IMG/VR virus record: IMGVR_UViG_2724679238_000015 | Coordinates: 1-35,486 of that record | DNA length: 35,486 bases | Source of the DNA: a virus | Taxonomy: Duplodnaviria > Heunggongvirae > Uroviricota > Caudoviricetes | Reading direction: 5' to 3' (one strand) | Shown here: in pieces, positions 5,027 to 30,780 of the stretch | How positions within the stretch are numbered: position 1 is the first letter of the stretch | How the letters are laid out: each line of letters begins with the position of its first letter | Made by a program: the position numbers and the translations under genes | The notes under the pieces: model-generated | Databases searched by the model: none | What the model was told of the DNA's origin: nothing | The model's input: the letters and a program-made list of their open reading frames with translations, nothing else

Positions 5027-7822
5027 GTGGCAACGGAGTACATCAGAAACTGGCAACAACCACGCCATGCAGTCGGTCGCGAGGGAACGGGGGAGCCTGT
5101 CCGCCCCTCCCTTCTTTCTTCCTGGCTGGATGCCTACCGGGCAGAGAACGAGCGCCGCCAGGAAATGGCTGATGCGGCGTTCTCCGCCACGCCGCTGGGC
5201 AATCTGATTAATAAAAACCTGGACGCACAGGAAAAACAGGACAAAGCCATCACACTGGCAAGAGAAGCCAGAAAACAGGCGTGTGGCGCGGTGGATGAAG
5301 CAATTGCCGCACTGCGCCTGCTGCCGTCCTATCTGCGAGATCCGCTTATCCGCCATCTCTCTTTCCTGCGCAAAAAACAGGAATCCGATCGTCAGAAAGG
5401 CAAAAAGAGCTGGCAGGCTGAACGCTACGCGCGCGGAACCCTGCGCAAAATATTCGAACGTCTGGAGCGCACCGACAGACGCTGGCTGACACCGGGTTAT
5501 CGCTCCCTTGCCGGGCGTGAACGCCTGGATGATTTACTTTACCTGCCGCAGCTCAACAAACACCAGATACAGACGCTGGCCGTCATGACAGCGGCGATGT
5601 TCAGCAGCACCTTCGAAAAACTCTGCGATGACTTTGGCGCGACCGATGGCGAGCTGACCATGGATATAACGCTGAAGGCGTATCAGATGCTGGCCCGCAT
5701 GGCGTTACATCTGCACACAGTGCCGCCGCATTATGACGCACTGACAACAGACAAAGACCGGAAGAACGAACCGGACACGGAGCTGCTGCCGGGTGCAATC
5801 CTCCGCCTGACCTGTGCGGACTGGTGGAAACGCAAATTGTGGCTTTTACGTTGCGAATGGAGAGAGGAACAACTCCGCGCTGCCTGTCTGGTTTCCAGAA
5901 AAACATCCCCCTATCTGAGTCAGGACGCATTAAGTGAATTTCGCGCACAGCGCGAGAAAACACGCGATTTCCTGAAAAGTTTCATGCTGGAAAATGAAGA
6001 CGGGTTCACGATTGATCTTGAGACGGTGTATTACGCGGGAGTAAGTAACCCGGTCCACCGTAAGGCAGAAATGATGGCCACCATGAAGGGGCTGGAACTT
6101 CTGGCCGAAGCCCGTGGCGACAAAGCGGTATTTCTGACCGTTACCTGCCCGTCAAAATATCACGCAACAACGGAGAACGGTCATCCGAATCCCAAATGGA
6201 ACGGCGCCACCATGCGCGATTCCAGCGATTACCTGGTTAACACTTTTTTTAAGGCAGTCCGCAAAAAACTGAACCGCGACGACCTGCGCTGGTATGGTAT
6301 CCGCACGGTGGAGCCACACCATGACGGCACCGTGCACTGGCACATGATGGTCTTTGCACATCCTGAAGAAATCGACAGCATCGTGGACATCACCCGTGAT
6401 ATTGCCATTCGCGAAGACCGCCACGAGCTGGGCAATGACATAACTCCGCGCTTTAAGGCAGAGTACGTCGACGGTTCGAAAGGTACGCCGACCAGCTACA
6501 TCGCCACCTACATCGGAAAGAACCTGGACAGCCGCGCCGTGGATGGCATTGACCCGAAAACAGGCAAGCCACGCGTTGATCACGAAACCGGAAAATCAAT
6601 GACCGAGAGCGTGGAACGCGCCATCGGCTGGGCGCGCCTTCACCGCGTCCGCCAGTTCCAGTTCTTTGGTATCCCCTCCCGTCAGGTATGGCGTGAACTC
6701 CGCCGCCTTGCCAGTCAGATGGCCCGCACCCCGGAAGGTCCACAACGTCTGGAAAATGACGCAATGGATGCGGTACTCGCTGCCGCTGATGCCGGGTGTT
6801 TTGCCACCTACATTGAGAAACAGGGGGGCGTACTTGTTCCACGCAAGGATTACCTGATTCGCACCGCCTACGACCTCGCAGAAGAGCTGAACGATTACGG
6901 CGAGCAAAGCGTACAGATTTACGGGATCTGGTCGCCACAAATCGGGGAATCTTCCCGCGTGTGCACGCACCCGGATAACTGGAAGCTGGTAAGACGTAAA
7001 CCGGAAGCGGAAGACAGCGCCCGCGAAAATGGTTTTGACCTTCAGGGCGGCCCTGCCGCCCCTTGGACTCGTGGCAATAACTGTCCCCGTGTACAGGAAA
7101 CAGGCAACAGCGGGACAGAACTGTCGGAAGAGCAACCAACACCGTGGCCGCAGATCCCTGACGGCGTTGATGTGGATGAATGGATGCGCTCACTGAAACG
7201 GCACGAACGTCGGGCGCTGATGCGTTCGCTTCGTAACAAACAGGCAAAAAACAACAGTGATGAAATGCAGAGCTGGACACAGAGCCGCAAACAGCCGCGG
7301 TCTTTGCCTGATAACCACGAGTTACTCGCTAAAGAATGGCGGGAGTCTGCCGAATCTCTCGGCCTGCATATCGGTGAACAACAGATGCTGCGCCTGTTAC
7401 GGGGCGGCAGTCTGTACGTTGACGGCAGCATCATTGCACCGCAGGGATTTGAAATTGTACGCAAACCGGATACCCGCCCGGACAGCCGAATCACGCAGCT
7501 CTGGCAGCGCCTGAGCCGTAATCACGGCGTAAGCAGCACGGAGATCCGTCATAACCCGATCGCCAGCTATCTGGAACAGCTGGGGGCATCAGACCCCGAA
7601 GCCGCCGTACGCCTGGCATCCACACTTCAGCAGGACCAGAACACCATGAAAACACCCGTTACCGTGCTTTCTGACATGCTGCGTGCCATCCGTGACGCAG
7701 AGCACGCACAGAGAATCAGTGAAACCACTGAACGCGCCCGCCGCAAAGCAGACCTGCTGCGGTGGCCTGACCAGCGGAAACAAAAAACAGACAGAAACGG
7801 GATTCACAAATCCCGTAAATGA
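5027..7822 (+). CDS. A: replication initiation protein, P2 gpA-like rolling-circle endonuclease
   Basis: 931 aa, GTG start. Contains the conserved metal-binding block VEPHHDGTVHWHMMVFAH and YIATYIGKN tyrosine region of the P2 A family. The C-terminal ~250 aa is a low-complexity R/Q/E-rich extension. Confidence 0.85.
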   Translation: MATEYIRNWQQPRHAVGREGTGEPVRPSLLSSWLDAYRAENERRQEMADAAFSATPLGNLINKNLDAQEKQDKAITLAREARKQACGAVDEAIAALRLLPSYLRDPLIRHLSFLRKKQESDRQKGKKSWQAERYARGTLRKIFERLERTDRRWLTPGYRSLAGRERLDDLLYLPQLNKHQIQTLAVMTAAMFSSTFEKLCDDFGATDGELTMDITLKAYQMLARMALHLHTVPPHYDALTTDKDRKNEPDTELLPGAILRLTCADWWKRKLWLLRCEWREEQLRAACLVSRKTSPYLSQDALSEFRAQREKTRDFLKSFMLENEDGFTIDLETVYYAGVSNPVHRKAEMMATMKGLELLAEARGDKAVFLTVTCPSKYHATTENGHPNPKWNGATMRDSSDYLVNTFFKAVRKKLNRDDLRWYGIRTVEPHHDGTVHWHMMVFAHPEEIDSIVDITRDIAIREDRHELGNDITPRFKAEYVDGSKGTPTSYIATYIGKNLDSRAVDGIDPKTGKPRVDHETGKSMTESVERAIGWARLHRVRQFQFFGIPSRQVWRELRRLASQMARTPEGPQRLENDAMDAVLAAADAGCFATYIEKQGGVLVPRKDYLIRTAYDLAEELNDYGEQSVQIYGIWSPQIGESSRVCTHPDNWKLVRRKPEAEDSARENGFDLQGGPAAPWTRGNNCPRVQETGNSGTELSEEQPTPWPQIPDGVDVDEWMRSLKRHERRALMRSLRNKQAKNNSDEMQSWTQSRKQPRSLPDNHELLAKEWRESAESLGLHIGEQQMLRLLRGGSLYVDGSIIAPQGFEIVRKPDTRPDSRITQLWQRLSRNHGVSSTEIRHNPIASYLEQLGASDPEAAVRLASTLQQDQNTMKTPVTVLSDMLRAIRDAEHAQRISETTERARRKADLLRWPDQRKQKTDRNGIHKSRK

Positions 7823-7888
7823 GCAAAAAACGCGCCGCGATATATGAAACGCGCACAAAACAGGCAAAAGCGGGATTTCAGAATCCCG
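7798..7888. promoter_or_regulatory. two 18-bp palindromes CGGGATT-N4-AATCCCG (7798..7815 and 7871..7888) flanking the parM-like promoter; candidate parC centromere/operator
   Basis: Both copies have perfect 7-bp arms and are followed by TAAA. Centres are 73 bp apart, about 7 helical turns. The second overlaps a plausible -35/-10 (TTCAGA at 7877..7882, then ATTAAT about 17 bp downstream). Confidence 0.4.
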
Positions 7889-7923
7889 TAAACGATTAAT
7901 TAATCAACATAAGGAAAATCGAC

Positions 7924-8883
7924 ATGAAAATTTGCATCGACGACGGCTCCACCAACATCAAGCTGGCATGGACTGAGAACGGCGAACGCCGCAACGCCAT
8001 CAGCCCGAACAGCTTCAAGTCGGAATGGTCTGCGCCGTTCGGTGGCACGCAGCCCGCGAACTACATGCTTGATGGCGTGCGCTATGGTTTTGATCCGGTC
8101 AGCGATCGCTTTGTCCAGACGACCGACACGCAATACCAGTACAGCGATGTGAATGTCATTGCCATTCATCACGCGCTGGTCAAATCAGGTATCACACCAC
8201 AGGAAGTGGACGTGGTTGTCACTCTGCCACTGAGCGAGTATTTCGATACAAACGCACAGCCGGACATGGCCAACATCAACCGCAAAAAAGCGAATGTCCT
8301 GCGCCCTGTGGAGTACCAGAACGGTGAAGCATTCACTATCCGCAACGTGCGGGTTATGCCTGAATCCATTCCGGCTGGCTTTAAGGCACTGGCTGACATG
8401 AGTCCGTTTGAATCCCTGCTGATTGTGGATTTAGGCGGAACAACGCTGGATGTGGCAAAGGTTCAGGGGCAACTGGCAGGCATCAGCCAGGTGTTTTGCG
8501 ATCCACACGTAGGCGTTTCCCTGATGGCTGATGCCGTGCTGTCGGTGCTGGCCACTAACGGTATGCGTACCAGTCACCACATCGCCAATACCATTATTGA
8601 GCACCGTCACGATGAAGCCTGGCTACGCCAGCACATTCACAATGACGCGCATTACAACAGCCTGATAGCGGTTATTCGTGAAAAGGAGGAGACACTGAAA
8701 CAACGCGTGATCCGCGCACTCGCGGGCTTTTCGGGTTACGGGCGGGTGCTGGTTGTCGGTGGAGGAGCGGAGATTGTGGCACCCGCAGTCCGTGAAGTCT
8801 ATGGAGTCAATGCGAATTTCATCACAGACGGGGTGCCACAGTTTGCTCTGGTTAACGGTCTGTACGCTATGGATAAGGAGTAA
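7924..8883 (+). CDS. parM: ParM/StbA-family actin-like segregation ATPase
   Basis: 319 aa. MKICIDDGSTNIKL..ISPNSFK..YSDVNVIAIHHALVKSGITPQEVDVVVTLPLSEY matches plasmid R1 ParM as I recall it (MLVFIDDGSTNIKLQW...ISPNSFK...QYSDVNVVAVHHALLTSG). AAGGA RBS. Confidence 0.8.
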   Translation: MKICIDDGSTNIKLAWTENGERRNAISPNSFKSEWSAPFGGTQPANYMLDGVRYGFDPVSDRFVQTTDTQYQYSDVNVIAIHHALVKSGITPQEVDVVVTLPLSEYFDTNAQPDMANINRKKANVLRPVEYQNGEAFTIRNVRVMPESIPAGFKALADMSPFESLLIVDLGGTTLDVAKVQGQLAGISQVFCDPHVGVSLMADAVLSVLATNGMRTSHHIANTIIEHRHDEAWLRQHIHNDAHYNSLIAVIREKEETLKQRVIRALAGFSGYGRVLVVGGGAEIVAPAVREVYGVNANFITDGVPQFALVNGLYAMDKE

Positions 8884-8889
8884 CCCTCC

Positions 8890-9201
8890 ATGGCGACATT
8901 AACCAGAAGAATAAGTTTCTATCTGAAGCCAGCCGCCGTCAAGAACGAAGGCAAAGCATGCGCCTGGCTGGACAGCCTTACACCAGAAGCCCGCAAAAGC
9001 GGCCAACGCGTGGCTTTTCTGCCCGGGCTGGCACTTCTGAAAATGAATCCGGCAGAGGCTTACCGACTGGCTGCATGGGCTGATGATGAGGCGTTATCAG
9101 TGACACAAACCAGGGCAGAACGCCACATGTTACAGCCAGCGCCCACCGCACAGATAACCAGTCAGCTAGCCGGAAATATCCGGGCGTTATTTCCCGAATA
9201 A
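8890..9201 (+). CDS. parR: ParR-like centromere-binding protein
   Basis: 103 aa, AAGGAG RBS, directly after parM. RISFYLKP, WLDSLTPEARKSGQRVAFLPGLAL and NIRALFPE resemble R1 ParR (IAFKLNP, TLDSIPQGERSRLNRAALTAGLAL, LRSLFPKE). Confidence 0.65.
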   Translation: MATLTRRISFYLKPAAVKNEGKACAWLDSLTPEARKSGQRVAFLPGLALLKMNPAEAYRLAAWADDEALSVTQTRAERHMLQPAPTAQITSQLAGNIRALFPE

Positions 9202-9264
9202 CACAACATCAGGGCGCATCCGCCCTGATGACTTTAATCCGGGAACATAAACAAGAGGGACACA

Positions 9265-9606
9265 ATGCAACACATTGACAGAGAAAAAGCGCAGCGACTG
9301 ATTGAGCGGATGGAAGCGCTGGCGAAAGAAGAAAATGTCAACATCCAAAAAATAGCAGAATGTGGCCAGATAGTTCTTCGTCGTGAAAAAGACATCAAGC
9401 AACTGATGTCTGGCGAAACCAGCAAAACACGGATTCCAGGCGAGAAAACGATTTATTGTAGCTTCTGCAATAAATCCCAGTACGAAGTCACAAAGGTGAT
9501 TGCCGGACCGTCTGTTTACATCTGCAATGAGTGCGTGGATTTGTGCAATGAAATTATCAGGAGAGAAGCGACTGACCATGAAGAAGCGCGGAGATGCAAC
9601 GATTAA
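9265..9606 (+). CDS. small protein with a C-terminal ClpX-type C4 zinc-finger domain
   Basis: 113 aa. [38 protein letters not shown] is near-identical in pattern to the ClpX N-terminal zinc-binding domain ([34 protein letters not shown]). Preceded by a charged, probably helical N-terminal half; no AAA+ domain. Confidence 0.7.
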
Positions 9607-9674
9607 GTCGGGTAATGATATTGAGCAGGCGACTCACTGGATGCCGATGCCAGAAGCGTTTCAGGAGGTTAACC

Positions 9675-9950
9675 GTGGCTAACCTGCAACTTGCCGTCAA
9701 AGGTGAATACTTCGATGCCATGATTCGCGGAGAGAAAACAGAAGAGTATCGCCTGGTTAATTCATACTGGTCTCGCCGTATATTGGATAAGAGCTATGAT
9801 CGATTGATTATTACTAAGGGGTATCCGAAACGCGACGATTTAAGCCGCAGAATTGATGTCCCATATGGGGGATATGAGATCAAGGTGATAACACATCCAC
9901 ATTTTGGACCAGAGCCAGTAAAAGTATTTGCTATTAAGTTGACTCAATGA
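9675..9950 (+). CDS. ASCH (PUA-like) domain protein
   Basis: ORF-track frame 9594..9950; GTG at 9675 has an AGGAGG RBS 6 nt upstream. VANLQLAVKGEYFDAMIRGEKTEEYR fits the N-terminal beta-strand/GxKTxExR signature of ASCH domains. Confidence 0.5.
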   Translation: MANLQLAVKGEYFDAMIRGEKTEEYRLVNSYWSRRILDKSYDRLIITKGYPKRDDLSRRIDVPYGGYEIKVITHPHFGPEPVKVFAIKLTQ

Positions 9951-10210
9951 CCGATACCACTAAGAAAAAGACGTTAAATAACATACATGAAAAGTATGAT
10001 TATTTTACGGATACCGCTTGCTTGCTGACATCTGAAGAACAAAAGATAGCCCAACTTTTAGGCGATGCATGGAACCTGTATTTAACATTGCCAGTTGAGC
10101 ATCCAATGGGTAGAGATGAATTTTGCCGGGCAATTCATCATTGCCAAAATATGGTGTTGGCACGCCCTGCCATCAGGGCGCTGGCCAGTAAGGGGCAAGG
10201 CTATAAATAG
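9947..10210 (+). CDS. hypothetical protein, last gene of the accessory island
   Basis: 87-aa ORF; start overlaps the ASCH stop (ATGA); followed by a terminator. Confidence 0.5.
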   Translation: MTDTTKKKTLNNIHEKYDYFTDTACLLTSEEQKIAQLLGDAWNLYLTLPVEHPMGRDEFCRAIHHCQNMVLARPAIRALASKGQGYK

Positions 10211-10218
10211 ATGAGCAA

Positions 10219-10245
10219 AACGCCCTCCTCCAGGGCGTTTATTTC
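10219..10245 (+). terminator. rho-independent terminator closing the accessory island
   Basis: Stem AACGCCCT / AGGGCGTT with CCTCC loop, followed by TATTTC. Confidence 0.5.
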
Positions 10246-10644
10246 AATGCACAATAGTGCACAAATTTGCACAATTTTTTTGAACAACTTTTTACCCTTC
10301 CGGCCCGCGTGGCGGCTGGATCCGTCAAGGATCCGTGCATGCACAAAAAAACGCGTTTTTTCTGCGCGCAGGTGACGGGGGAACAGCCCGCGTTTCAGGG
10401 GGTAAATAGCATTCCCTGAGCGATGTCGCAGCGACACAACAGAATGGCTGTATTTCTCACGCTGAGCGTGAAAAAGACGTAAGGGTTTTTGATTTGATGG
10501 GTTGAAAGGTAAGGCCGTCAAAATCGCACTGAGGCGGCGAGAACATACAGTCAACGCGGTGGGATTGCGTAAGAGTCTGACCGTCGATGGTGGCGATAAA
10601 CTGGAAGGCGTCGTGAAATTATCTGATTGATACGGAGCTGGAGA

Positions 10645-10672
10645 GTCGGGGCATAAATTTTTTATGCCCCGG
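10645..10672 (-). terminator. hairpin downstream of portal gene Q, probable terminator of the P-Q operon
   Basis: CGGGGCAT / ATGCCCCG stem around an A/T-rich loop, about 30 bp beyond the Q stop. Confidence 0.4.
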
Positions 10673-10697
10673 CGAAGCAGCAGACAAGCGAAGCGCG

Positions 10698-11744
10698 TCA
10701 GGCTGTGGGCTGGGTGTCTAACAGTGCGTAAGGGTTAAAGCGGATCACCTCTTCGCCCAGCCAGTCATTGATGTGCTTCATGGCCTCCATGACGGGCATC
10801 AGCTCGTTAATTGCGTAAACCCGCGCGGCCTTCTCCACATCACCAAACGCACTTTTTTCACCCGGCATCGCCCCCATCAGTTGCGGCGGAACGCGGTGCG
10901 CAGCCAGCACATCATCACGGGATGCCGCCTTAACATTCATGAACTCATCCTTTGCGGTGATCTGCTGGAACGGCAAAATTTGCACCCCCTCTTTGCCCCC
11001 GTTGGGCGCATGAATGAGCACGTTTTTAAACGCACCACCACCACGTGCCCCCTGTAGCGTTTCTTTCAGGGAGTCCATGCTTTCGCGGTTTACCTGCGCT
11101 GCACCGATGTAGATGATGCACCCGGCGTGGGATCCGTTGTCGTAATACAGTTTTCTGAACATGTCCGCCGAATGAGACAGGCTGGCCGAGAGTAATGCGC
11201 CGAGATATTCCGGCATGCCGTAGATTTCCTGGTTAATGTCAGGATTCATCAGGTGGCACACTTTGCCAGGGCGAAACTGAAACGCGTCCTTACCATCCTG
11301 CACATACCACCATGATTCAAGATCGCTTCCGCGTCGCATGTATTTCGCCAGGGCGTGCCGTAATTTAAGCGGTTCGCCGAGCATATTGCTTCGAAGCTCA
11401 AGGAATGCGTTACCGAACACAAACCAGTCCAGCGCCAGCGCCGAGAAATCCTGCCGGGAAAGCAGCGGGTGCGGAATATAGCAGCCGAGCAATACATTGC
11501 GCTTAAAGTAAAGCGCAGACTGATGCCAGGACGTTTGCCGGGCAGCTCTTGCCAGACCGTACCAGTCCACCGGGGTTTCATACCATCGCCCGTTATCGGC
11601 ACAGTACATATTGTCCAGTAAATCATGCCCGGTCAGGCGGTAAGGGCCGTCAAATGTGAATGCACTGAGCGATGATTCTTTCCTGAGCGCATCAGCGAGA
11701 TCAATGCGTGAACTCATGCGCACTTTTTTATTTTTTCTGCTCAT
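10698..11744 (-). CDS. Q: capsid portal protein (P2 gpQ homolog)
   Basis: 348 aa; size, position downstream of the terminase ATPase gene and overall similarity to P2 Q. ATG overlaps the P stop (ATGA). Confidence 0.85.
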   Translation of the reverse strand: MSRKNKKVRMSSRIDLADALRKESSLSAFTFDGPYRLTGHDLLDNMYCADNGRWYETPVDWYGLARAARQTSWHQSALYFKRNVLLGCYIPHPLLSRQDFSALALDWFVFGNAFLELRSNMLGEPLKLRHALAKYMRRGSDLESWWYVQDGKDAFQFRPGKVCHLMNPDINQEIYGMPEYLGALLSASLSHSADMFRKLYYDNGSHAGCIIYIGAAQVNRESMDSLKETLQGARGGGAFKNVLIHAPNGGKEGVQILPFQQITAKDEFMNVKAASRDDVLAAHRVPPQLMGAMPGEKSAFGDVEKAARVYAINELMPVMEAMKHINDWLGEEVIRFNPYALLDTQPTA

Positions 11745-13495
11745 CAGAACTCCATAACCGTGAAACGCTCGTTTTCTCCTTCGCCGCCAATCGGTTCGTT
11801 AATGACAGCAAGCATGGTTGCCCACGCAAGGTCGCCGTGGCTGATCCCCCTCGCGCGGTCCGTTTCGTAAGTGATAAAGCCGCCCGGTGTTTTCACCTTA
11901 CGCACGGCGTTAAAGGCCGCGACCAGCTCCCGTTCGGCACGATCGTATTCCCAGCGCCCGGCACGCATTATTTGCAGCATTTTCAGTACCAGCGACCGTT
12001 TTGATGACAGCGTGAAGGTGTACGGAATAGCAGCAGGGAAAAACCGTTTCACTATCTGATAAACAGCCTCCCCGTTCCCGCCCGTCACATCAATGCCGAT
12101 GTGTTCCACGTTGTAGCGATACGTAAACTCTTCAATGACTCTGGCCTGTTCTTCAAACTCCAGCCCCTGAACGCGTCGCGTCTCCACCGTTCGAAAACGG
12201 CCACCAGGAACAGCCGGAGGAACCACCACGGACACAGCGCCGCTGTCGCCGTTGCCACTGCTGCCGTTTGCGTCATACCCAATCCATACCGGGCGATTCC
12301 CCATCGGGCGGGGAGCAAAAGGTTTCCAGTCTTTCCAGTCGTCGTATCCGTCAACGCCGCAGCCAATCAGGATATTCAGGTTAAATGCCGATTCCCCTTC
12401 GCGGACAAACTCACACATATAGAGATTGAGGAACTCGTCTTCGGTGTTTTCATCACGAATTTCATCAATATCGGTGTGTTTCCAGCCGTGATTAACCACA
12501 TCTTCCAGCGTGACAATTTGCCGCCACGTCCGGTCAGGGCAGATAAGCCCGTTATGCAGCGTTTTCCAGTCAACAGAAAAACGCTGGCGTTTATGCGTGG
12601 CCTTTTTCTCATTCCAGCGGTCGCCGTTCCAGTAGGCGTATGCCTCGTGCGTTTCGGTGGATGGCGTGGAGAAGTAGGTGCGCCGCAGTCCGCTGAGGGT
12701 TGCCATAGCGCCAGCCACCTTGCGCAGTTCAGCAAAGCGACTGACCCAGAAAAATTCATCAAAATAAAAATTGCCCGTATAGGACTGTGCCGACGCAGCA
12801 GAAGTGCCGAGAAAATGCAGCTCTGCGCCGTTGGAGAGGATGATTTTATCGCCCCCTTTCAGCTCCACATCAACTTCAGCCGCGGCCTTCTGAATAATGC
12901 TTTTAAACTGGAACGCCTGACGACGCGACGCAGACAAAAAAATCTGGTTACGCTGGTAAGGTTGCGCCACATCGTCACGCAGCGCCATCAGCAGAGCTTC
13001 CTGTGCAAAATACCAGGTCGCCCCAATCTGTCGGGATTTCAGGATCATCCTGTTACGTATCCCGGCTTCCCTGCAAAGGGTCAGGGAGTCAAACCAGCCC
13101 CGCTGATGCCACTCCAGCCTGCTGATGATTTTTTCCCGCAGTGCGGCAATCTGTTCCGGCGTGAAATGATTTTTAAGTTTTTTCGCCCGGCCTTTCTTTC
13201 CTGTGGCCGTCGCATCCGGCTGGGCATCATGCAGTTTTTTAAGCTGCCGGGTCAGCAGGTCTATTTCCTTGAAGTCACCACCTGTTTTATTCTGTTTTTC
13301 AGTGAGCTGGATGAGGCGCGCATCGATGGACTGCGTGACACGCTGCACGGGTGGCGTTTCATCCCACTGGTCGCGTTTTTTCCACGCATAAATCGTGTTC
13401 GGGTTTATTCCCATCAGACGTGATATTTCTGCGGGCGGATAACCCTGCCAGTAAAGTTGTCGCGCACGCTGGCGCACAAAAGCGTCCTGAATCAT
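11744..13495 (-). CDS. P: terminase large (ATPase) subunit (P2 gpP homolog)
   Basis: 583 aa; N-terminal HTH-like MIQDAFVRQRARQLYWQGYPPAEISRLMGINPNTIYAWKKRDQW and a nuclease-like C-terminal half, as in P2 P. Confidence 0.85.
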   Translation of the reverse strand: MIQDAFVRQRARQLYWQGYPPAEISRLMGINPNTIYAWKKRDQWDETPPVQRVTQSIDARLIQLTEKQNKTGGDFKEIDLLTRQLKKLHDAQPDATATGKKGRAKKLKNHFTPEQIAALREKIISRLEWHQRGWFDSLTLCREAGIRNRMILKSRQIGATWYFAQEALLMALRDDVAQPYQRNQIFLSASRRQAFQFKSIIQKAAAEVDVELKGGDKIILSNGAELHFLGTSAASAQSYTGNFYFDEFFWVSRFAELRKVAGAMATLSGLRRTYFSTPSTETHEAYAYWNGDRWNEKKATHKRQRFSVDWKTLHNGLICPDRTWRQIVTLEDVVNHGWKHTDIDEIRDENTEDEFLNLYMCEFVREGESAFNLNILIGCGVDGYDDWKDWKPFAPRPMGNRPVWIGYDANGSSGNGDSGAVSVVVPPAVPGGRFRTVETRRVQGLEFEEQARVIEEFTYRYNVEHIGIDVTGGNGEAVYQIVKRFFPAAIPYTFTLSSKRSLVLKMLQIMRAGRWEYDRAERELVAAFNAVRKVKTPGGFITYETDRARGISHGDLAWATMLAVINEPIGGEGENERFTVMEF

Positions 13496-30297: not shown

Positions 30298-30780
30298 GCC
30301 AGCTAACCACTTCGCCGGGCGTCATCATGAAGATTTCGGCGGGCGACCAGTTAAAAATAACGGCAATATCTGCCACAAAGTCTTCTATGTGCTCAAAGCA
30401 CACAACCGTGATCAGGCTTCCGTCGCCTGTTCGTTCTTCCCGCCAGAGTCCGCACCGCTCAAAAAATTTACGGCAACCACACATAACTGAATAAAGTCAC
30501 GGGATGCCATTTTTTTGATCGTCACTTCATCCAGTCGCGGTGATGTCACGCGTGACAACAGCGTAAACATGGATTCCGCTTTCAGATTCAGCACATCAGA
30601 CAGCGACAGACCACGCAGGGATCCAGCCTGCTCAATAGCCCCGGTGATCTCCACATACGTGATTTTTTCGTCGCCTCGCTCAATTGGCAGGGTAAGTTTT
30701 ACGCCGCGCTCGCTGGTTTCTTTCGCAGTATCAGCAACCACCACAGCGTTTTCAGTATCGGTATTTTTCGTCTCTTTCAT
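30248..30780 (-). CDS. E+E' frameshift product: E extended by a programmed -1 ribosomal frameshift
   Basis: Slippery heptamer UUUUUUG on the mRNA (plus-strand CAAAAAA at 30460..30466) near the end of E; the -1 frame stays open to 30248. Confidence 0.55.
30412..30780 (-). CDS. E: tail assembly chaperone (P2 gpE homolog)
   Basis: 122 aa upstream of T. Confidence 0.75.
   Translation of the reverse strand: MKETKNTDTENAVVVADTAKETSERGVKLTLPIERGDEKITYVEITGAIEQAGSLRGLSLSDVLNLKAESMFTLLSRVTSPRLDEVTIKKMASRDFIQLCVVAVNFLSGADSGGKNEQATEA

Follow-up and report, generated by a model that had tools for sequence, protein, structure and literature searches.

P2-like phages have an accessory hotspot in the interval between gpA and gpQ (Rousset et al. 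2022, PMC9122126). In P2 itself this interval contains orf91, tin and old. A partition system is present in about a quarter of the P2-like hotspot loci, and the supplement to the survey has loci written as 'StbA + Plasmid_stab_B + zf-C4_ClpX + hypothetical...' (PMC9122126). For many of the P2 hotspot genes without known function, a defensive role has been predicted or demonstrated (PMC13586616). The other relevant group of described systems is the ASCH proteins, recognized by the octapeptide GxKxx[E/T/S]xR following helix 1 (definition from the preprint 10.64898/2026.02.27.708502). According to the same preprint, ASCH proteins of the glutamate type remove N4-acetylcytidine (ac4C) from tRNA, and the lysine and glutamate of the octapeptide are essential; this work relies on overexpression, and the proteins tested include no phage protein.

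The window considered here, a 35.5-kb stretch of DNA (35,486 nucleotides), is, in essence, an entire P2-like prophage; it belongs to the P88 type (genus Xuanwuvirus). Its region 7850-10700 is 92-94% identical to phage P88 and relatives over the common parts (megablast). In the ORF list, five ORFs, all co-directional with gpA, lie between the gpA gene encoding the replication protein (5027-7822, plus strand) and the portal gene (10698-11744, minus strand), beyond which the large terminase gene is situated (11744-13495, minus strand). The five plus-strand ORFs encode ParM (7924-8883; Pfam StbA_N, E = 7e-82; ParM C-terminal domain, E = 3e-66), a StbB/ParR-like partition protein (8890-9201; Pfam Plasmid_stab_B, E = 3e-23), a ClpX-type C4 zinc-finger protein of 113 aa whose gene has a chimeric 3' end (9265-9606; Pfam zf-C4_ClpX, E = 9.4e-18), and two small proteins, ORF1 (9675-9950) and ORF2 (9947-10210). 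The latter two sit between gpA and gpQ at the far end of the hotspot as defined in PMC9122126. The preliminary description took all five genes for a single island. This does not hold: ParM and StbB are common to every P88-like relative examined, the zinc-finger gene is present in only some of these relatives, and the genes 3' of it vary from phage to phage.

Two copies of a 42-nt direct repeat (7781-7822 and 7854-7895, 79% identical), each with the palindrome ACGGGATT-N4-AATCCCGT, extend over the terminal part of gpA and the spacer that separates it from parM. They form a candidate parC-like centromere or a ParR-binding and promoter region of the partition cassette. A hairpin CATCAGGGCG-CATC-CGCCCTGATG is located between the stbB-like and zinc-finger genes (9207-9230; -18.4 kcal/mol, z = -4.0) and is retained in P88, TUM1880 and CMZE065. 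It has no U-tract on the plus strand and is terminator-like on the minus strand according to the terminator scan. This hairpin may attenuate read-through or stabilize the par transcript.

ORF1 starts at GTG 9675, preceded with a 6-nt spacer by the Shine-Dalgarno box AGGAGG (9663-9668), both as initially read, and ends at TGA 9948-9950; it is 91 aa long. A longer version of ORF1 starting from ATG 9594 (118 aa) is present in the ORF list. It was rejected, as the extra codons read through the remnant of a DUF551 gene out of its frame, are not conserved as coding sequence, and are missing in the homologues, which start with MANLQ. The ATGA overlap of the two genes (9947-9950), in which ATG 9947 overlaps the TGA of ORF1, is present as claimed, and so is the second ORF of 87 aa, which ends at TAG 10208-10210. 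The start of ORF2 has no Shine-Dalgarno sequence, and therefore its translation probably depends on the ATGA overlap. Comparison of ORF1 with its homologue from phage 933W yields dN 0.14 and dS 0.98, and comparison of ORF2 with a Hafnia homologue yields dN 0.10 and dS 1.70 (dN/dS about 0.06). Since dN is well below dS in each comparison, both ORFs are real genes under purifying selection.

The junctions were mapped on an alignment of five sequences, that is, the window, P88, TUM1880, CMZE065 and 933W. Resemblance to the zinc-finger alleles of P88 and TUM1880 is gradually lost around 9576-9586. The sequence starting with 9587 can be aligned to the 3' terminus of the EaA/DUF551-like gene L0065 of 933W and then, across the L0065/L0064 junction, to L0064, the ASCH homologue. 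Therefore the zinc-finger gene ends in foreign sequence, with the last ~10 codons and the stop (9576-9606) coming from an out-of-frame remnant, and what is left in 9587-9682 (plus strand) is the 3' part of a DUF551/EaA-like gene of lambdoid origin. The zinc-finger protein has 113 aa here as compared to 110 aa in P88 and TUM1880. The frame of the remnant ends at TAA 9680-9682, producing an 8-nt overlap with the start of ORF1, and the intact DUF551 gene of TUM1880 has the same 8-nt overlap with the ASCH gene. On identical contigs, gene callers place at the remnant a 44-aa ORF with a weak match to Pfam DUF551. The remnant marks the lambdoid origin of ORF1.

The similarity to 933W stops near 9936. 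The short segment 9937-9971 is common only to TUM1880 among the five aligned sequences, and from about 9972 the match is to the ORF2 core of the CMZE065 type. The boundary between ORF1 and ORF2 is itself a recombination junction. From about 10212 the sequence, both downstream hairpins included, is the backbone common to P88, TUM1880 and CMZE065.

The terminator that had been noted after the two ORFs does exist as a hairpin with a U-rich tail, but it belongs to this backbone and not to the cargo. The 9-bp GC-rich hairpin AAACGCCCU / AGGGCGUUU with the loop CCUCC (10218-10226/10232-10240, plus strand; -15.2 kcal/mol, z = -3.5 versus shuffles) is followed by AUUUC, and together they form a probable intrinsic terminator (10218-10245). 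The hairpin is kept in P88, TUM1880 and CMZE065 regardless of the upstream cargo. It falls just under the limit of the simple terminator scan, which yielded instead the hairpin 10257-10272 followed by AATTTTTTT. This second backbone hairpin, GTGCACAAATTTGCAC followed by AATTTTTTTG (10257-10282, plus strand), has a run of seven T after it and is conserved in the same three sequences.

Between the terminator and the portal gene there are approximately 450 non-coding nucleotides (10245-10697), highly conserved across P88-like prophages and containing a hairpin CGGGGCATAAATTTTTTATGCCCCG near the portal stop codon. This region presumably contains cos. The P2 cos sequence (a 19-mer) has no credible match in the window at up to five mismatches, and the cos of P88-like phages presumably differs from that of P2.

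The ASCH signature ascribed to the N-terminus of ORF1 is real, but weak at the level of sequence. The Pfam domain PF04266 (ASCH) matches only residues 6-28, with E = 0.062 and 14.4 bits, below the cut-off of 21.2 bits. Similar weak matches were observed in 15 of 32 ORF1 homologues, the best E-value being 0.032. No model for ORF1 was found in the NCBIfam scan, and the search of PDB sequences with the ORF1 family profile produced chance-level matches only, with no ASCH chain among them. ORF1 matches PHROG 625, labelled as function unknown. By contrast, the predicted structure of ORF1 is a PUA-like beta-barrel with flanking helices, in agreement with the initial assignment; entries listed with this fold are the EVE-related 1wmm and 6yex and the YTH domain. 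Following helix 1, ORF1 has the complete octapeptide G19-E-K21-T-E-E24-Y-R26 (GxKxxExR), in which G19, K21, E24 and R26 are invariant in the 32 homologues. The numbering of the motif in E. coli YqfB gives the same K21 and R26 (preprint 10.64898/2026.02.27.708502). K21 and E24 occupy the places reported as catalytic in ASCH enzymes with this type of motif. Thus ORF1 is an ASCH-fold protein, as follows from the structure and the motif rather than from the sequence profile. The name is not new, as PGAP already labels such genes 'ASCH domain-containing protein'.

A direct homologue of ORF1 is L0064 of phage 933W, with 82% amino-acid and about 84% nucleotide identity. Matches at about 84% nucleotide identity occur in roughly 140 Stx phages, where the gene is adjoined by EaA/DUF551 genes and has xis-int downstream. 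The Shine-Dalgarno sequence AGGAGGTTAACCGTG is identical in 933W and TUM1880. The central part of ORF1 is matched in 1332 of 5426 complete E. coli genomes, with at most four copies per genome. The neighbours of these relatives are mostly lambdoid accessory genes, e.g. DUF551, DUF4752, DUF550 and Ea22.

ORF2, initially considered to have no recognizable motif, has a conserved core motif and belongs to a large family, PHROG 13916 (E = 4.6e-30). It consists of a variable N-terminus (residues 1-26) and a conserved three-helix core (about 27-81) with the pattern W-N...L-P-x-E-H-P...E-F...I-H..Q..V..R. All core residues are present, E31, L38, W42, N43, L48, P49, E51, H52, P53, E58, F59, H64, Q67, R73 and R77, and these are invariant or at least 90% conserved among 51 diverse members of the family. 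In the structure model the core has pLDDT 93-98, with helices at 29-46, 55-71 and 73-81. The family comprises 2567 clusters at 50% identity, and the PHROG 13916 profile (67 positions) is matched by ORF2 and by all ten diverse relatives tested. No matches to ORF2 were found in the Pfam, NCBIfam and PADLOC scans. The family profile has only chance-level matches in PDB sequences, and the structural search yielded no informative match.

No domain fusions were found by Pfam in the longest relatives of ORF2 (up to 233 aa). The relative P0263 (233 aa) contains three tandem copies of the core domain. In P0304 (129 aa), the core is followed by a C-terminal Cys-rich segment of the CxxCxGxG type with a weak match to Q-like antiterminators (PHROG 127, E = 1.7e-5). 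Neither architecture suggests a function for ORF2. The helical domain of ORF2 comprises about 55 residues, and our guess is that it serves as a binding module.

PHROG 13916 carries the label 'DNA ligase', which we reject. No nucleotidyltransferase or adenylation domain was found for ORF2 in Pfam or in PDB sequences, the Pfam ligase domain is absent in the longer relatives as well, and ~55 residues folded into three helices cannot make up a ligase. The label has spread to GenBank records of Pseudomonas putida phages whose proteins have no ligase domain, an example being gene 46 of Pseudomonas phage Peetri (Peetri_00046; L008 2201-2680).

The ORF2 core was found in 113 of the 5426 complete E. 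coli genomes, always in a single copy. In the inspected E. coli loci it occupies the gpA-gpQ slot, where its most common form is a 135-aa protein with the core fused to an N-terminal segment of unrelated sequence. Among other P2-like elements, a Yersinia phage has an ORF2 relative directly 3' of gpA, and a Hafnia prophage has one behind a DNA methyltransferase-like gene. In T5-like phages the relatives lie within the tRNA gene clusters, and in Pseudomonas phages of roughly 200 kb they adjoin dihydrofolate reductase. In phiPSA1-like phages the portal gene is on one side and the protease gene on the other. Pseudomonas prophages carry the relative behind an integrase-like gene, and in Enterobacter prophages it is flanked by glycosyltransferase genes and an HNH-terminase pair. 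A further neighbour is a tail-completion gene. No constant neighbour of the ORF2 relatives was found in the seven contexts considered.

Several of these loci have features of their own. In the Pseudomonas prophages L011, L013, L014, L033 and L034, the gene 3' of the ORF2 relative belongs to an uncharacterised family, PHROG 3412 (the PHROG was checked for L011 and L033 only). Its product has 187 aa in most of these prophages and 228 aa in L014. This gene lies between replication/nin-like genes and lysis genes, which is the position of lambdoid late regulators. In prophage-like contigs of Pseudomonas syringae (L035, L036 2202-4174) the portal protein has a match to Pfam Acb1 (anti-CBASS), and the beginning of the gene for a 57-aa ORF2 relative lies within the portal gene. 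In the hotspot of the Hafnia P2-like prophage (L019 5578-6329), a Fic-domain gene and a gene for a 114-aa partner, both on the opposite strand, adjoin the ORF2 relative in the gpA-portal slot. They are probably a toxin-antitoxin or defence pair.

Both genes under consideration are situated at the tail of early operons, 3' of gpA in the window and upstream of xis-int in 933W. No sigma-70-like site was found on the plus strand of 7700-10800 in a simple promoter consensus scan. The position and the scan taken together suggest that both genes are probably made during lytic growth or induction and are silent in the uninduced prophage. A point against this timing is that the par genes upstream may have their own autoregulated promoter active in lysogens.

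The explanation that we consider likely as a whole treats the segment 9587-10245 as a recombination patchwork carrying cargo and not as a system; it makes up the variable distal part of the gpA-gpQ hotspot in a P88-like prophage. As the mapped junctions show, a minimal ASCH gene came from the lambdoid early-left accessory region together with the last ~95 nt of the preceding DUF551 gene. At the left join, the incoming ASCH fragment is attached to the resident ClpX-zinc-finger gene at its 3' end. At the right join, the ASCH gene meets the PHROG 13916 gene, the usual occupant of this part of the slot in P2-like prophages of E. coli. Downstream of ORF2 comes the conserved terminator of the backbone. 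By analogy with the characterized ASCH proteins, ORF1 would most likely bind RNA and hydrolyse a modified base using K21 and E24, the best precedent being the removal of N4-acetylcytidine from tRNA. The arrangement is ordinary phage mosaicism, a mosaic cargo in a known hotspot, and not a new system. The hotspot, the PGAP naming of the ASCH genes and the catalogue entry PHROG 13916 (an uncharacterised family) are known already.

One alternative is that the two genes work together as a module, for example, as a toxin-antitoxin system with an ASCH ribonuclease as the toxin and a small helical antitoxin. The ATGA overlap and the sizes of the proteins would fit such a module. However, the two genes are not conserved together, which is one half of the refuting condition set in the preliminary description. 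Of the 5426 complete E. coli genomes, only that of strain TUM1880 has them side by side, and there too they are at the distal end of the slot of a P88-like prophage. The exact arrangement of the window recurs in many draft assemblies, the exact ORF2 protein being present in 158 blocks, with the same gene order in all eight places listed; this is one circulating recombinant and not independent evidence of linkage. As 1332 genomes have ORF1 relatives and 113 have the ORF2 core, with this single case of adjacency, and as the ORF2 relatives have unrelated neighbours, the two genes move independently of each other. Moreover, the genes 3' of ORF1 in lambdoid phages are unrelated, the ORF2 core in other P2-like prophages stands alone or is fused to the unrelated N-terminal segment, and the boundary between the two genes is a recombination junction. 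Thus the toxin-antitoxin module is already largely refuted by the distribution, and we regard a two-gene module of any kind as extremely improbable. It is also improbable, to a lesser degree, that the pair or the whole five-gene block is anti-phage defence cargo expressed in lysogens, similar to tin and old of P2 in the same slot. The location in the hotspot, where defence has been predicted or demonstrated for many genes without known function (PMC13586616), agrees with this possibility. On the other hand, no PADLOC-DB family was found at E <= 0.1 for any of the five proteins, and ORF1 has no fused or adjacent effector. Most relatives of ORF1 belong to the lambdoid early-left operon, which is repressed in lysogens. 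The genes considered here run in the direction of the early replication operon, and no separate promoter was found for them, whereas tin and old of P2 are on the opposite strand and have their own mapped transcript starts. Finally, relatives of ORF2 are present in virulent T5-like phages and in the roughly 200-kb Pseudomonas phages, where defence in the style of prophages makes little sense.

The same operon-end positions are compatible with early-lytic counter-defence or host takeover by one or both genes, with ORF2 as an inhibitor binding a host protein and ORF1 as an enzyme removing a host-imposed or host-required modification of nucleic acids. The ORF2 family is restricted to phages and prophages, its members are small and helical and occupy moron-like positions, and they are found in both temperate and virulent phages of Enterobacterales and Pseudomonas; one of them adjoins the portal gene with the Acb1 domain. 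The ability of ASCH proteins to remove ac4C from tRNA (preprint 10.64898/2026.02.27.708502) points in the same direction. However, there is no similarity to characterised anti-defence proteins, structural matches to the Acb2/Tad1 hairpin are not significant (E > 2), and the counter-defence role overlaps the patchwork explanation, to which it only adds a purpose. We thus treat it as a tentative and unlikely possibility. Its bolder version is that ORF1 is an early-lytic eraser of a host RNA mark (e.g. ac4C34 of elongator tRNA-Met) or of a base modification imposed by a defence system, and/or that PHROG 13916 is a widespread unrecognized module of host takeover or counter-defence; this seems unlikely as well. 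Patchwork cargo in the variable end of the hotspot is the explanation that we prefer.

The main consequence is a correction of annotation. The 'ASCH' label of ORF1, unjustified by sequence profiles alone, is backed by structure and motif, the 'DNA ligase' label of PHROG 13916 is shown to be unsupported, and the route of a lambdoid early gene into a P2-like hotspot is mapped. The ORF2 family is large, phage-confined, uncurated and has no Pfam model. ASCH-superfamily genes are carried via lambdoid prophages by about a quarter of complete E. coli genomes. To our knowledge, no phage ASCH protein has a known role. The recent work on ASCH tRNA deacetylases offers a direct assay for such a role.

ORF1 can be compared to the known members of the ASCH superfamily (PF04266), including E. 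coli YqfB (9kyf), the Enterococcus protein 3iuw, PH0355 of Pyrococcus (2z0t) and ZmASCH of Zymomonas (5guq). With its 91 aa it is among the shortest, and it is phage-borne. Unlike those proteins, it has no sequence similarity detectable to the solved ASCH chains and falls below the Pfam gathering threshold. Its direct homologues are L0064 of 933W and the equivalent genes in Stx-converting and other lambdoid prophages (PHROG 625). L0064 shares with ORF1 the ribosome-binding site and the way in which the start overlaps the preceding DUF551/EaA gene. However, genes of the L0064 type reside in the early-left accessory region upstream of xis-int, whereas ORF1 resides in the gpA-gpQ hotspot of a P2-like phage, and its last residues have been replaced at the junction with ORF2.

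A similar position is occupied in P2 by Orf91 (NP_046796, DUF3850/ASCH), also a small ASCH-superfamily protein encoded co-directionally with gpA and downstream of it in the same hotspot. Its gene directly follows gene A (L032 2817-3146, corresponding to 30316-30645 of the phage P2 genome NC_001895). However, Orf91 and ORF1 belong to different families: Orf91 exceeds the Pfam thresholds for both DUF3850 and ASCH, and in the comparison of profiles only 24 residues around the octapeptide align, with the probability of 8.5%. As P2 Orf91 passes both thresholds, ASCH-superfamily genes from different families recur at the start of the P2-like hotspot, directly 3' of gpA, as exemplified by P2 Orf91 and ORF1. 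Finally, the location is the same as in the gpA-gpQ hotspot survey (PMC9122126), in which the distal genes are 'hypothetical', whereas here they are placed in an ASCH-fold family and in the PHROG 13916 family, respectively, and the junctions are mapped.
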